Positions 13,832-43,661 of a stretch of DNA of 57,927 nucleotides are shown here, piece after piece. This stretch comes from an uncultured Gammaproteobacteria bacterium (GTDB taxonomy: Bacteria; Patescibacteriota; Patescibacteriia; JAGPKW01): assembly GCA_964532735.1 (NCBI GenBank), contig CAZHKK010000003.1, positions 1 through 57,927 on the forward strand, in the 5' to 3' direction. The position numbers and the translations under genes are program-made. Positions within the stretch are counted from its first letter, which is position 1. Every line of letters starts with the position of its first letter. Below the pieces are notes generated by a model, which saw only the letters and a list, made by a program, of their open reading frames with translations, was not told where the DNA came from and ran no database searches.

Positions 13832-13905
13832 TGGCTCCGGGACATGGATTCGAACCATGATGACAGGTTCCAGAGACCTGTGTCCTACCATTAGACGATC
13901 CCGGA
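13832..13905 (-). tRNA. tRNA-Gln (anticodon CUG), CCA encoded
   Basis: Manual fold: acceptor UCCGGGA/UCCCGGA, anticodon stem CAGGU/ACCUG, anticodon loop CUCUGGA, T-arm CAUGG-UUCGAAU-CCAUG, discriminator G, then CCA. Confidence 0.85.
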
Positions 13906-24256: not shown

Positions 24257-24877
24257 TTATTTTAAAACTATTATTTTTAAAACTTTTGCACCAAAATTTT
24301 TTGAATCTACTTTATTTTTCATCCAAACATCTAATCTATCCATGCCTGTAAATCTTTTATTCATTCTATCTTCAACATAAAATATTCTATCTCCAAAATA
24401 TTCTGGAATTAATATTTTTGTATGAAAAGGTAAATCGTTGGTAGCTACTATATCTTCCACATCTCTCTTGCAAACATCCATTCCAGAAGCTGTTATACAA
24501 GGAGTATCATCGGTTTGTCCAGGCTCACTATTATACGATGTTACTGTAGCTATATAAGAATCCTTAACTTGATCTTTATATTTTTCCATAACCTTTTTTA
24601 CTTCTTCATTTGTCTTCTTAATAAGAATTGAAGGTTTTTTAATTTCTTCTTTTATTTCTTCTTTTATTTCTTCTTTTATTTCTTCTTTTATTTCTTTAAC
24701 TAAAACAACATTTGAAACTTTTGGTTCCAATTTTAAAGGCTCCTCGGCTATTGCTTCGTGTATTATATGACTTTTTAAATCTTTAAAAATTCCCATTTTA
24801 TAAGACAAAATACCCCCAATAAATATTATTGATAAAACTTGTATAGTAAATACAATTTTCCATTTAAAATCCTTCAT
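24257..24877 (-). CDS. 3D-domain (MltA/YabE-like) cell-wall protein with N-terminal anchor
   Basis: C-terminus ATVTSYN..PGQTDDTPCITASG...VATN.LPF.T...IP matches the 3D domain. N-terminal TM helix and an EIKE repeat linker. Confidence 0.8.
   Translation of the reverse strand: MKDFKWKIVFTIQVLSIIFIGGILSYKMGIFKDLKSHIIHEAIAEEPLKLEPKVSNVVLVKEIKEEIKEEIKEEIKEEIKKPSILIKKTNEEVKKVMEKYKDQVKDSYIATVTSYNSEPGQTDDTPCITASGMDVCKRDVEDIVATNDLPFHTKILIPEYFGDRIFYVEDRMNKRFTGMDRLDVWMKNKVDSKNFGAKVLKIIVLK
24643..24696 (-). repeat. 12-bp in-frame tandem repeat (EEIK)n
   Basis: TTTCTTCTTTTA repeated about 4.5 times within the 3D-domain gene. Confidence 0.85.
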
Positions 24878-24995: not shown

Positions 24996-26003
24996 TTATT
25001 TATGTCCTAAATGTTTATATGCTAATTCCGTAACAACCCTACCTCTTGGCGTTCTTTGTAAAAAACCTGTCTGAATCAAAAATGGTTCATAAACATCTTC
25101 TATAGTTGCCATTTCTTCTCCAGTAGCTGCTGATAAAGTATTTAACCCAACAGGACCCCCATTAAATTTACTTATTATAGTTTCTATTATAAACCTATCT
25201 GCATGATCCAATCCTAATTCATCTACCTCTAAAGAATTTAATGATTGTTTTGCTTCTTCTTTTGTAATTTTTTCTTTGTTTTTTACGCAAACATAATCCC
25301 TAACTCTTTTTAATAATCTATTTGCTATTCTTGGTGTTTTTCTTGATCTTTTAGCTATTTCCATAGCTCCTTCATCGTCTATTTCTATATTTAATATATT
25401 TGCAGATCTTTTTATTATCTCTTTTATTTCTTTGTCTTCATAAAAACTAAGCCTAAAAACATTACCAAATCTATCTCTTAAAGGAGAGGATATCAAACTT
25501 ATTCTTGTGGTTGCTCCTATTATTGTTATTTTTGGGAGATCTATTCTTATTGTTTTAGCAGAAGGTCCTTTTCCAACTATTATATCTAATGCATAATCTT
25601 CCATTGCTGGATATAATATTTCTTCAACAACTTTATTTAATCTATGAATTTCATCTATAAACAATATATCTCCTTCTTCTAGGTTTGTTAATATAGCAGC
25701 TAAATCTCCTGCTTTTTCCAATACCGGACCAGCAGTTATTTTTATATTAACCCCCATTTCATTAGCTATTATATTAGCAAGAGTTGTTTTTCCTAGTCCT
25801 GGAGAACCATAAAGCAATATGTGTTCAATAACATCTTTTCTTTTTTTTGCTGCTTCTATTGATATAGAAAGATTTTTTTTTATATTGTTTTGACCTATAT
25901 AAGAATTTAGGTCTTTTGGTCTCAAAGAATAATCTACTACCTTATCCTCTTCTAATTCTTCTGATTTTATTATTCTATCTTCTATTTCTTGTTCTAATTC
26001 CAT
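24996..26003 (-). CDS. ruvB: Holliday junction helicase RuvB
   Basis: LRPKDL..YIGQ, GPPGLGKTT-type Walker A (GSPGLGKTT) and DEIHRL. I place the start at Met54 of the tracked ORF (ATG at 26003-26001). The 53 aa upstream look like translated AT-rich spacer and overlap a structured element. Confidence 0.93.
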
Positions 26004-26080
26004 TTTTACTATTGACAAAATATTAAATATGTGATAATGTATGTATACCTTGAAAATTATATCATACAAAAAAAATAAAT

Positions 26081-26240
26081 AAAATAATGTTTTTAAATCT
26101 GTGGGCACGACAAGCGGGAGATTAAATCTTCGGGGAAAAGGGATTAGTCTTTTTTCTTCCATTGGGTAATCTTTTTGCTCACAGTTTTAAGGACGTTATT
26201 TTTTTATAAAAACACCATTTATTTATGGTGTTTTTATTTT
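26081..26240 (+). ncRNA. Candidate plus-strand structured sRNA (family unassigned)
   Basis: 26081-26107 pairs with 26176-26202 (26 bp, 4 G.U pairs, only on the plus strand). GC-rich internal hairpins. Upstream TTGACA at 26012-26017 and TGtGATAAT at 26030-26038. Terminator hairpin at 26208-26235. Confidence 0.4.
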
Positions 26241-28127
26241 TATAGAATCAGCATCTATTGAATTAATTGATTGTTCTTCACTATTTTGTTCGTCTGTAGA
26301 TAATTTTTCAACACCCTTCATGCAAACAGCTTGCCATGGGATATAACGACTTTTAAATACTTTATCAAACCTAGTTCCATCTTCATATTCTACATTATAT
26401 TCAAACTCTGCATCTGCACCGTTATGAGAAGTTTCTGTACATTTAATTTGACCCACTGGCAAATCTAATGTTTCTATCCATTTAGTTCCTGGTGCTATAA
26501 CTATATTTGTAATGATAGGATTGCCTACTTTTATTTTTCTATTATCTTTTGTTCCCCAAATAGAATAAGTTAATTCATATGTTTTTAAATCAATATTTGT
26601 TGTTATTAAAATATAATTTTTACTATTATTTAAAAACCTAAAATCTGGTTTTGGAAAATAAATAGTAGCATCTGTTCCTGCTGGCTCGTAGTAAGGAACC
26701 CTATAAGAATGATTTTTTCTTTCAAGTATTGGAAATCCACCATTTATAGCAGTTCTGAACATAGTTGTTCCAACTTGGCATAAACCTCCACCGTATTCTT
26801 CCTGGGTTTTATTACCTTTTATAACCAACTCGGTAACATACCCCATTGCTGCATTAACTGCCTTTAAAGTTTTGATCATGGAAAACTCTTCTCCTGGTTT
26901 TATTAATGTTCCATTTACATAACTAGTTCCAACTTTGATATTATGAATTCTATTTGTAGATGATCCTTTAAAATTAGAAGATCCTTCTGCTATTTTTTCT
27001 AATAACCCATATTTCACAACTTCACTATCAATTTCGGTTGGCATTGATTCTTCTATTGTTAAAAAAACATCTTTTTTTAAAGACAAAATAGCGTCTTGTA
27101 ATTTATTATAAGAATCTTCTTGATTCAACTCTGTTCCTTTTGTAACTGGTGTGAATTTTTTAGCTTTTTCGTTTTCTATTATTAATTCTCCAGCACCTGG
27201 TTTTGTATCATTTTTATCAGAAATTTCTTGTAAATATTTTTTTATATTTTCTTCATTTAAATTTATACCTGCTTCTATAAATTTATTTTTATCATCTAAT
27301 GCATATTCAAAACTTAACATATTTATTAAATCTTTTTTTTCTAGTATATTTTTTTTATCTTTATAAAATAAATATATTGGAGAATTATCTAATATTTTAT
27401 TTGATTGGATTAAAGTATTTGATAATTTATCTTCAGTTATACTTGGGTTGTTTATTGTTTTGTTTATGTTAATATTTAAAATTTCTTTTCTATTTTTTGA
27501 ATTTATATATTTTAAAATTTCTATATTAACAATATCTAAATCATAATTAAAACCTTCTTCTTCTTTTTTTATTATAAAATTATCAGATTCTTCACTTTTT
27601 ATTATATTTGCATTAATAGTTGATTTTTCATATTTTTTTATTTCTTTTAATATTTCAGCTAATTTGAAATGATCTATAGAATAATTAAAATTAAATTTTT
27701 TTAAGACAAATAAATTTGATAAAAACAATTCTGGACTTATTTTTGTTTTTAAAAATTTTGAAAAAATTTGATCTATTATTTTATCCTTTGAATTTACTTC
27801 TAATAAATTTGATAAATTTATACTTTGTAATACTTTATTATTATTAGAGTCTTCAATTATAAAAACTACTTTTGTTGATAAAAGTTTATTCTCTTCTTCT
27901 GTAATAATATTTTTTATTTCATTTTTATTTTTAAAAGAAATGTCCCTGTCTAAAAAATAAGTTTTAACTGGAGCTATTTTAGTAAAAACATAATTTGTTC
28001 CATGAATTAATAAAATTAAAAAAATTATTGGTAATAAAATAAATAAAAAAACATCCATAGAAAAAATTGTTTTTTTATTTTCTCTTCTTATTTTTAATTT
28101 TTCAAAAAATAATTTAACTTTATTCAT
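26223..28127 (-). CDS. VanW/YoaR-family protein with N-terminal membrane anchor
   Basis: GGGLCQVGTTMFRTAINGG...ERKNHSYRVPYY VanW core. 634 aa. Confidence 0.85.
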   Translation of the reverse strand: MNKVKLFFEKLKIRRENKKTIFSMDVFLFILLPIIFLILLIHGTNYVFTKIAPVKTYFLDRDISFKNKNEIKNIITEEENKLLSTKVVFIIEDSNNNKVLQSINLSNLLEVNSKDKIIDQIFSKFLKTKISPELFLSNLFVLKKFNFNYSIDHFKLAEILKEIKKYEKSTINANIIKSEESDNFIIKKEEEGFNYDLDIVNIEILKYINSKNRKEILNININKTINNPSITEDKLSNTLIQSNKILDNSPIYLFYKDKKNILEKKDLINMLSFEYALDDKNKFIEAGINLNEENIKKYLQEISDKNDTKPGAGELIIENEKAKKFTPVTKGTELNQEDSYNKLQDAILSLKKDVFLTIEESMPTEIDSEVVKYGLLEKIAEGSSNFKGSSTNRIHNIKVGTSYVNGTLIKPGEEFSMIKTLKAVNAAMGYVTELVIKGNKTQEEYGGGLCQVGTTMFRTAINGGFPILERKNHSYRVPYYEPAGTDATIYFPKPDFRFLNNSKNYILITTNIDLKTYELTYSIWGTKDNRKIKVGNPIITNIVIAPGTKWIETLDLPVGQIKCTETSHNGADAEFEYNVEYEDGTRFDKVFKSRYIPWQAVCMKGVEKLSTDEQNSEEQSINSIDADSIKIKTP

Positions 28128-28133
28128 TATGCT

Positions 28134-28562
28134 TTATTTTTTTATTTTTAATAAAACTATTTTTAATATTCCATTTTCTATTTTTGCAGATGTTTTTTCT
28201 GGAACTATTTCTGATGGTAATATTATAGACCTAGAAAAACTTCCATAAAAACATTCCCTATGAATATATTTTTTTGATTTTTCTATTTTTTCTCTTTTTC
28301 TTATTCCTTCAATTTTAATTTTTTCTGGTTCTACATCTATATTTATATTATCAACATCAACACCAGCAACTGGAGATTCTATAAAAATATTTTTATTGTC
28401 TTCTAAAATATCTAAAGACAACTCTCCTTTTTCTATTTTATATTCTTCTTCTGAAAAATCATTAATTAATATAGTATTTAAATCTAAAGTTTTTGAATTA
28501 ACATCCTGTTTGGCTGTTTTGTTTGTTTTTCTTTCTTTTGGTGTTATAATTTTTTTTGACAT
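28134..28562 (-). CDS. Hsp20/alpha-crystallin small heat-shock protein
   Basis: Alpha-crystallin domain ending GSFSRSIILP....A.IENGILKI. Confidence 0.88.
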   Translation of the reverse strand: MSKKIITPKERKTNKTAKQDVNSKTLDLNTILINDFSEEEYKIEKGELSLDILEDNKNIFIESPVAGVDVDNINIDVEPEKIKIEGIRKREKIEKSKKYIHRECFYGSFSRSIILPSEIVPEKTSAKIENGILKIVLLKIKK

Positions 28563-40077: not shown

Positions 40078-40197
<120 letters not shown>

Positions 40198-40295
40198 TTA
40201 GTTTCCAGCTATTGAAGACTTGTAAACTTAAAATTAAATAGAGATTTAGAATAGTTTAATGTAGCATTTATTAACCAAAGAATTTCATCATTATT

Positions 40296-43264
<2,969 letters not shown>

Positions 43265-43661
43265 ACAAGAATAACGAAATTCTTGTTTATTCTCTCGAAT
43301 GTTATTTTAAAACATATTTAAGTAACAATATATGAGAAATTACATATATTAATTAATACTTTTTACTCGCTTTCTTATAGGTAGACTTAGACCTATAAGA
43401 AATATTCTAAATTCACTCTCTATTTAATTTTTAATCTACAAATCTTTAACAACTGAATTTAGGCTAAAACATTTTTTAGACTATGTCAAATGTTAAATTT
43501 AGACAACAAAAAATAACCAATAGCATTTATTATTATAAAAATTGTGATAATAGCAAATGCTTAGAGGTTATTAATAATTTATTATAACTTAAGCGTTCTG
43601 GTTTTCCTACTTTTGTTTTCTTATTTTTTGGATGTTAAGTATTATAGTCTAAAAAATTTTT

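Follow-up and report, generated by a model that had tools for sequence, protein, structure and literature searches.

A conserved rod-like RNA structure beside ruvB in Patescibacteria, very probably the product of a non-coding RNA gene outside the known families

6S RNA (about 150-200 nt) forms an extended helix with interruptions, in which an unpaired central strand lies between two helical arms; its central bubble is open on both strands, and a small hairpin is often found on its 3' side. The 4.5S-type small RNA of the bacterial signal recognition particle (SRP; RF00169) consists of one hairpin, about 110-125 nt long, that carries internal loops and a tetraloop, and in SRP helix 8 a GNRA-type tetraloop is combined with symmetric and asymmetric loops that bind the M domain of Ffh. 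Bacterial Y RNAs, which associate with Ro (Rsr), are rod-like as well and also occur in phages, and lineage-specific orphan structured small RNA (sRNA) motifs were reportedly brought to light through comparative genomics by Weinberg and colleagues in 2010. Here we consider how these systems compare with a locus on contig CAZHKK010000003.1 of the Patescibacteria assembly GCA_964532735.1, analysed over a stretch of 57,927 nt (hereafter the window, contig C3 of the genome that we label G000). The assembly amounts to 739,553 bp at 24.5% G+C and 95.9% completeness, its gaps being scaffold Ns. Between ruvB and a gene for a VanW-like membrane protein, the window carries a 122-nt rod (26081-26202, plus strand) that forms a long interrupted hairpin. 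We consider that this rod very probably represents a structured non-coding RNA with an independently transcribed gene of its own and a family not yet in Rfam, and it is likely that this identity holds jointly with an action in trans through the binding of protein.

The fold is far stronger on the plus strand than on the minus strand. For positions 26040-26245, the plus strand has a minimum free energy of -59.9 kcal/mol (z = -7.47, with none of 200 shuffles as good), versus -37.1 kcal/mol for the minus strand (z = -3.44, 1/200 shuffles as good). A first-pass annotation, made from the sequence alone, had drawn attention to a GC-richer island at 26099-26184, where a script check gives 44% G+C against 24.5% window-wide, and to a pairing of CTGTGGGCA (26099-26107) with TGCTCACAG (26176-26184), which the script likewise confirmed. 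The helix does continue outwards, as had been proposed, through 17 further pairs (26081-26097 with 26186-26202) across a T/T mismatch at 26098/26185, and each of the four wobbles among the resulting 26 pairs is G/T on the plus strand. Comparative data retain two of the inner hairpins that had been suggested, namely GGGAGAUUA/UAAUCUUUU (here P3) and GGGGAAAAGGGA/UCUUUUUUCUUC (the apical P4), and do not support the third, GGAGA-UUAAA-UCUUC. In the plus-strand fold, a 7x7 internal loop lies between P3 and the apical hairpin; the remaining parts are located in Table 1.

Table 1 Features of the rod locus and its immediate neighbours, in window coordinates
Feature	Position	Strand	Remarks
Sigma-70-type promoter	26012-26038	+	-35 TTGACA at 26012-26017; extended -10 TGtGATAAT at 26030-26038; 15-nt spacer
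Predicted A-rich 5' leader	26045-26080	+	Placed from the promoter position; longer than in most relatives
Whole rod	26081-26202	+	Covariance-model match: R1 135.6, R2 107.4, R3 105 bits; single copy in genome
P1 5' arm, 17 bp	26081-26097	+	Pairs with 26186-26202
P2 5' arm CUGUGGGCA, 9 bp	26099-26107	+	Pairs with 26176-26184
One-sided central bulge CGACAAGC, 8 nt	26108-26115	+	0-1 nt on the facing 3' strand
P3 5' arm GGGAGAUUA, 9 bp	26116-26124	+	Pairs with 26167-26175 (UAAUCUUUU); starts with conserved tandem G.U
P4 apical hairpin, 12 bp	26132-26159	+	26132-26143/26148-26159; loop UUAG at 26144-26147
3' arms of P2 (26176-26184) and P1 (26186-26202), then U-rich tract	26176-26202	+	
Terminator-like hairpin, 13 bp, with A-run/T-run flanks	26206-26237	either	Overlaps last codons and stop (26223-26225) of the VanW-like gene
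ruvB, 335 aa	24996-26003	-	Divergent from the RNA gene; Pfam RuvB_N/AAA_lid_4/RuvB_C
VanW-like membrane protein gene, 634 aa	26223-28127	-	Pfam VanW and PG_binding_4; converges on the RNA gene

The rod recurs throughout the class to which the studied genome belongs. A DNA search of 60 relatives recovered it from one genome of the same genus (89% identity) and from two of the same family (77-79%), and its range was extended with our own covariance models, the E-values of which are rough. The first of these (R1), built from four sequences, gave full-length matches in 69 of 151 class genomes; the second (R2), built from 33 of the R1 matches, detected the rod in 136 of the 151, including 126 of the 135 genomes of high quality; and a third (R3) took in more distant members. 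Positive genomes usually contain one full-length R2 match, the exceptions being tandem pairs, reverse-strand echoes and two weak partial matches. When the phylum as a whole was sampled (151 genomes), all seven genomes of the class were positive, compared with 8 (R2) or 10 (R3) of 144 from other classes, belonging to five families (f113, f124, f127, f136 and f148), so that most Patescibacteria classes lack a detectable copy under filters which, being strict for samples of more than 40 genomes, may lose weak matches. Metagenomes supplied 120 further loci bearing an exact 16-letter word from the bulge region, and 55 of the 80 that were scored match the model on the plus strand. Tandem duplicates are present in three genomes (G067, G049 and G109); in the G067 pair (L049:1501-1623 and 1626-1748) the core is identical, and the P1 arms are unrelated in sequence but still self-complementary.

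Covariation supports the helices throughout. In the 33-sequence alignment, 91.7% of cells form standard pairs, both partners change in 39 of 44 pairs, and none of 500 shuffles reaches the observed value of any of five measures; when the 3' partners are slid along by 1-3 columns, pairing falls to 45-52%. Of the 25 pairs in helix 1 (P1 plus P2), 24 change on both sides, as do seven of the nine in P3. An alignment of the metagenome sequences, which lay outside model building but were picked by the bulge word and include two reverse-strand and a few partial rows, yields 88.6% pairing and 35 of 44 pairs (0/500 shuffles), with slid controls at 37-51%, and RNAalifold returns essentially identical helices from the same columns. 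Conservation and covariation among relatives, on which the first-pass annotation had made its proposal depend, are both found. The wobble pairs additionally reveal the strand: G.U or U.G outnumber A.C or C.A by 197 to 24 in the 33-sequence alignment, by 164 to 24 once the four training sequences are set aside, and by 308 to 49 in 52 copies, while models score reverse strands at 31-38 bits versus 88-108 bits for forward strands. Given that the conserved G.U pairs become mismatches on the minus strand, and that reverse scores are low, the RNA strand is the plus strand, in agreement with what the wobbles of the single sequence had already suggested.

Across the 52 homologues, the rod measures 114-141 nt (median 123), and sequence constraint sits in its middle and at its tip, that is, in P2, in the 8-10-nt bulge CGACAAGC(AU), in a P3 that opens with G.U pairs, in a GG/CC clamp and in a GGC-UNCG-GCU apex. 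P1 is free to vary, with pairing alone being kept. The class consensus of P2 is CUGnnnnCA / UGnnnnCAG, and its C-G and A-U pairs beside the loop do not vary in any of 58 metagenome rows. Most class members have a bulge of 10 nt (CGACAAGCAU), and every position of CACGACAAGC, which is usually followed by AU, shows at least 90% identity in the 33-sequence alignment; single substitutions occur in L062 and L069, and in other classes both sequence and length differ (3-10 nt, e.g. UCACCAGUG). P3 starts with GGGG opposite CUUC, and three successive pairs at this point remain G.U in 55, 52 and 31 of the 58 metagenome rows. Beyond it, a mostly paired segment is followed by the clamp, by a 2x2 loop and by the apex, where a conserved G.U is found in 30 of 33 rows (with a neighbouring G-C in 32 of 33) and in 52 of the 58 metagenome rows. 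The possibility of an encoded peptide was rejected, as the short frame that opens in the rod of the studied genome lacks a start codon in relatives, as read from the alignments.

Rfam 15 provides no relevant match to this structure at E-values up to 10 in 25950-26300, nor at E-values up to 5 in 16 diverse homologue loci, in keeping with the failure of the first-pass annotation to recognise a family by eye. The weak matches that do arise at the locus are terminator- or microRNA-like chance matches that fall well short of their gathering scores, the best being MIR2670 with 18.2 bits as against a gathering score of 117. No tmRNA match was found at the rod locus.

A promoter precedes the rod on the same strand. 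The TTGACA and TGtGATAAT elements remarked upon at first pass are present (Table 1), and the same arrangement occurs in four genomes of family f1. Defined as TTGACA-N15-19-TAnnnT with at least 10 of 12 matches, a promoter lies no more than 120 nt upstream on the sense strand in 34 of 43 loci, compared with five of 43 when the antisense strand is searched and with 3.6% (37 of 1030) of control windows from the same loci; this count leaves out nine copies, comprising those too near a contig end and the second tandem copy in L049. In relatives, 8-67 nt separate the end of the -10 element from the rod, compared with 42 nt in the studied genome, where transcription is predicted from the promoter to start at around 26045 and would thus produce a 36-nt leader, part of which can extend P1 by A-U pairs. 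At the opposite end, 37 of 52 copies contain UUU within the final 10 nt matched by the model, and the transcript of most relatives probably ends at the basal stem and U-tract of the rod itself. The strong hairpin with a U-run that had been noted downstream was found at 26206-26237. Given the symmetry of its A-run and T-run flanks, this hairpin could serve both converging transcripts, yet because the RNA of most relatives probably ends at its own stem, it may function mainly for the VanW-like gene. Including the predicted leader, the transcript of the studied genome could reach approximately 160-200 nt in length. Among sequencing runs, the stretch was listed for twenty DNA runs from eight studies and for no RNA run, and the assembled contigs of four metatranscriptome runs from two of these studies gave no match to 25400-26900, which constitutes evidence neither for nor against transcription.

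Homologues of the rod are also carried by phage contigs. Among 120 viral-contig loci containing a 14-letter bulge word, three match the model. The contig of the first copy (L185:4138-4241, minus strand) encodes a terminase large subunit, a DnaB-like helicase, an ERF recombinase, HNH endonucleases and a lysozyme-like protein, and that of the second (L231:4198-4318, plus strand) encodes ERF, YqaJ, ParB_N and a PAPS-reductase-like protein. Neither VanW nor ruvB was found near the rod homologues on L185 or L231, and such an absence of the neighbouring genes speaks against a role in cis alone. Folding gives the same bulged rod for the L231 and L203 copies; in the L185 copy, P2, the bulge sequence and P3 are kept by eye and the tip is shortened, and an unconstrained fold did not reproduce the rod. 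The L203 copy (L203:2453-2577, minus strand) lies on a 2.9-kb contig from a viral collection at 63% G+C; it is itself 67% G+C and scores 52.5 bits, so that the rod family is not confined to A+T-rich genomes. A promoter-like site is located 12 nt upstream of this copy, and DUF7695 is the sole Pfam match on its contig. The first-pass annotation had advanced an independent plus-strand sRNA gene, antisense to both of its neighbours; conservation, covariation, strand bias, promoter and phage homologues all lend support to this proposal, in which transcription itself is inferred.

We propose that the consensus sigma-70 promoter on the plus strand would drive the RNA, and that the transcript would fold into a single long interrupted hairpin of about 55 bp, whose basal stem would provide stability and termination, possibly in both directions. 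An A-rich 5' end is combined with a U-rich 3' end in 14 of the 52 copies, rendering the basal stem symmetrical in this part of the family, and it may consequently also stop the converging VanW-like gene. The rod would then act in trans as a protein-binding RNA, with the bulge and the adjoining G.U helix forming its recognition site. The leading candidate for the partner is the RNA polymerase holoenzyme, in which case the rod, whose two arms of about 26-28 bp flank a central, unpaired and template-like strand, could represent a minimal 6S-like decoy. This suggestion draws on the template-like strand between the arms, on the strong promoter, and on the class being without a detectable canonical 6S RNA; phages, moreover, would gain from carrying an RNA that acts as a polymerase decoy. 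We offer this partner as the best single guess, with considerable doubt, and if it is wrong, the partner would mostly be expected to be some other protein.

Several observations weigh against a polymerase partner. The 3' side of the central loop comprises only 0-1 nt, and the adjacent P3 is supported by covariation; the rod is short, at 114-141 nt; it lacks the segments shared by Patescibacteria 6S RNAs, and the Rfam 6S model does not match it even permissively; one genome (G248) holds both the rod and a 31-bit 6S-like match; and the sequence of the bulge is not conserved between classes. Furthermore, one ancestral event apiece may account for the class having the rod and lacking 6S RNA. To these may be added points that temper the wider case for an independent RNA gene, given that the class genomes are kin, and counts among them are not independent events, that pair counts lean towards structure because the alignments were fitted to models, and that promoters and terminators are consensus matches only.

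The neighbourhood of the rod might be taken to favour a different role. In 29 of 32 class loci, the VanW-like gene converges on the 3' end of the RNA, at a distance of 50 nt or less in 16 of these, and it adjoins the RNA in 12 of 17 further loci, reaching into other classes. At two loci of family f37 (L075 and L076), the VanW-like gene is instead upstream and on the same strand as the RNA, ending about 200 nt before it, and promoter matches are weaker (8-9 of 12), such that the VanW transcript may be the source of the RNA in f37. So long-lived a link to the 3' end of the VanW-like gene, kept despite the flipped orientation in f37, could point to cis-antisense control of the VanW-like or ruvB transcript, or to a base-pairing regulatory sRNA with the bulge as its seed. 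The unpaired stretch is near-invariant within the class, as might be expected of a seed, and the RNA gene has tandem duplicates, which are common among regulatory sRNAs. We nevertheless consider this explanation unlikely. Sites complementary to the bulge are not in excess in the studied genome, with one 9-letter match against about 0.8 expected by our own estimate, and no recurring complementary site was found in about 157 kb of flanks from the 52 copies. In addition, the phage copies are without both neighbour genes, and the bulk of the conserved sequence sits in helices. Were ruvB to be read through from the VanW-like gene, the whole RNA would be antisense to the spacer, yet the conserved bulge and apex would be left unexplained.

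It is improbable that the rod is the true 6S RNA of the class, a homologue that has shrunk and diverged beyond recognition. Such an origin would account for the rod being the sole conserved sRNA-type gene found in a class in which RF00013 matches none of 151 genomes, whereas the canonical model matches 22 of 144 genomes from other classes, seven of them above the gathering score; it would also suit the rod shape, the central unpaired strand and the strong promoter. RF00013 similarly failed to match the locus (at E-values up to 10), the whole studied genome or the 16 homologue loci. However, the 6S RNAs of Patescibacteria (about 144-197 nt) share GGGAGCC-like and GCACCCACCUGG-like segments, none of which is found in the rod, and nine of them, when folded, mostly form a long unpaired 5' strand with a 3'-side hairpin that the rod also lacks. 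R2 matches none of 11 6S loci, and neither VanW nor ruvB was found beside the 10 that were examined. Both RNAs are present in G248, the sole sampled genome where a 6S-like match and the rod coincide. The match in question (L097:1501-1644, on G248:C33) is below threshold at 31 bits and folds like 6S; as it did not turn up in two relatives belonging to the same family, the bin may be contaminated. Where the first-pass annotation judged the rod compatible with 6S RNA, its general shape bears this out, but the defining features of 6S, in terms of model match, bubble, length and shared segments, are not present.

That the rod is a leftover or repurposed SRP RNA of the 4.5S type, operating without Ffh or with a non-homologous partner, is very unlikely. 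The idea gains some appeal from a lineage without recognisable SRP RNA and from the similarity in size and single-hairpin shape, but at permissive thresholds neither RF00169 nor RF01854 matches the locus, the studied genome or the 16 homologue loci, and the apex of the rod is UNCG-like. Small SRP RNA was detected in none of 61 relatives, and large SRP RNA in none of 41. A search for the Ffh M domain (PF02978) was negative for the studied genome, for 41 relatives and for 121 genomes of the phylum sample, and the two weak PF00448 (SRP54) matches of the studied genome belong, by their sequence motifs, to a Mur ligase and a PilT-type ATPase. Four further genomes, two of them single contigs, yielded no SRP54 domain, and a fifth gave a weak match resembling that of the Mur ligase. 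A six-frame translation of the studied genome contained no convincing G3 motif of an SRP GTPase, the one regular-expression match being unlike such an enzyme, and the best tblastn hit of E. coli Ffh (NC_000913) had an E-value of 0.31. With FtsY, Ffh and SRP RNA not found in this 96%-complete genome, and SRP proteins not found more widely, the rod is not an Ffh partner; moreover, most Patescibacteria classes are also without SRP, yet do not have the rod. Nelson and Stegen (2015, PMC4508563) had already reported that no Parcubacteria genome yielded a detectable ffh or ffs, and Moreira et al. (2021, PMC8080830) that many bacteria of the candidate phyla radiation (CPR) lack the two SRP subunits. 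Our searches extend the absence of SRP, published for Parcubacteria, across the sampled phylum.

Confinement to a role in cis, as a two-way terminator or insulator or as a structure in a minus-strand mRNA, is highly improbable. In 16 of 29 loci, 0-50 nt separate the rod from the stop codon of the VanW-like gene, 14 of the 52 copies have A-rich 5' and U-rich 3' ends, and the fold of the minus strand is itself better than expected by chance (z = -3.44); but the 197 G.U pairs of the plus strand (against 24) would be A.C mismatches on the minus strand, the promoter is in the sense orientation, the near-invariant interior and conserved apex would be needless in a terminator, and there are phage and tandem copies. 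A plain two-way terminator was rejected on similar grounds, with a U-run in 37 of 52 copies being set against the near-invariant bulge, the conserved apex and the sense promoter of 34 of 43 loci. An element acting at the level of DNA (a miniature inverted-repeat transposon, a single-strand origin or a phage attachment site) is barely credible, for although the rod is a long imperfect inverted repeat, situated near replication and recombination genes on phage contigs and near ruvB in cells, it is usually single-copy and syntenic, its compensatory changes and G.U bias are typical of RNA, a promoter lies upstream, the phage copies are whole rather than 3' fragments, and Pfam revealed no integrase among the 17 open reading frames scanned on L185 and L231, which are part of the frames of these contigs. 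Similarly, a miniature inverted-repeat or other dispersed repeat was rejected, the studied genome having one copy and the 136 positive class genomes usually one, with tandem exceptions. Fragmented rRNA was dropped as a candidate, since the 23S match spans the whole model and the RNase P RNA is complete (the 16S gene was left out of consideration).

With regard to the neighbouring genes, ruvB is upstream of the RNA and divergent from it in 19 of 32 class loci. In the window, the longest ruvB frame (388 aa) reaches 26162 and crosses the RNA gene on the minus strand (26003-26162). The resulting 53-aa N-terminal extension is spurious and the real start is the ATG at 26003: Pfam RuvB_N begins at residue 27 of the 335-aa form that starts there, and in relatives the stop-to-stop ruvB frames extend only slightly upstream of the equivalent start codon. 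RuvB orthologues are therefore without this extension, which had appeared implausible at first pass, and automatic annotation may over-extend ruvB here. Further out, a minus-strand gene at 24257-24877 encodes a product of 206 aa that has a hydrophobic N-terminal segment and KEEI repeats and matches nothing in Pfam, and an Hsp20-family gene (28134-28562, minus strand) is located just upstream of the VanW-like gene.

Searched at Rfam gathering thresholds, the window contains only 23S rRNA, 5S rRNA and one tRNA. The 23S rRNA (2971 nt, full model) and the adjacent 5S rRNA occupy 40078-43265, and the tRNA 13835-13905, all on the minus strand. Elsewhere in the studied genome, a complete RNase P RNA scores 161 bits. 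The sole tmRNA candidate (G000:C14:2359-2704, minus strand) is full length on the Rfam model but sub-threshold, at 25.2 bits for a cut-off of 47, and ARAGORN found no tmRNA in this genome.

Patescibacteria account for a large share of bacterial diversity, and their very small genomes have lost supposedly universal parts such as the SRP. An RNA that about 90% of the sampled class genomes contain, usually once, and that is under strong structural constraint is likely to have an important role, and the copies on phage contigs hint at a host function worth hijacking. A more ambitious interpretation, tentative although we take it seriously, is that the rod forms the core of an undescribed ribonucleoprotein in this ultra-small, SRP-less class, whether as a polymerase decoy replacing 6S RNA or as the RNA subunit of a machine without a counterpart in model organisms, and that phages have captured trimmed copies with which to manipulate the same host target. 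In practical terms, a well-supported structure of about 120 nt is a defined object for tests of protein binding, the model allows this RNA gene to be marked in thousands of metagenome-assembled genomes, and the false 53-aa extension of ruvB is removed.

Our literature search found no description of the rod RNA or of its bulge motif, although it may be listed in a supplement, and a targeted look-up of terms in a 2026 preprint on prokaryotic non-coding families (10.64898/2026.10.21.760802) gave zero occurrences of the terms sought. Among described systems, the orphan sRNAs of the kind attributed to Weinberg and colleagues are similar in being conserved, covarying, restricted to one bacterial lineage and independently transcribed (as we infer for the rod), while the rod differs in being outside Rfam 15, in its unusual prevalence within its class (90%), in its tie to one neighbourhood and in its additional presence on phage contigs. 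Bacterial Y RNAs share with it a rod-like form and a conserved helix with a bulge that could bind protein; however, the rod has no tRNA-like module, Ro/TROVE (PF05731) was not found in the studied genome, and no Y-RNA family of Rfam matches the locus. Small bacterial SRP RNA corresponds to the rod in its single hairpin, internal loops and tetraloop, as well as in being a usually single-copy gene of the housekeeping type, but the loop pattern of helix 8 is absent from the rod, and in place of a GNRA-type tip there is a UNCG-like apex with a conserved G.U. 6S RNA, finally, resembles the rod in being encoded by a stand-alone sRNA gene with a strong sigma-70 promoter, usually single-copy and near-universal in its lineage, and in having an extended, interrupted helix whose two arms enclose an unpaired central strand. 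The rod is nevertheless shorter (114-141 nt), its central opening is one-sided (8-10 nt facing 0-1 nt) and it lacks the small 3'-side hairpin. We accordingly rate the rod as a new RNA family that is not placeable in a known kind, and one which may prove to be a functional analogue of 6S RNA.

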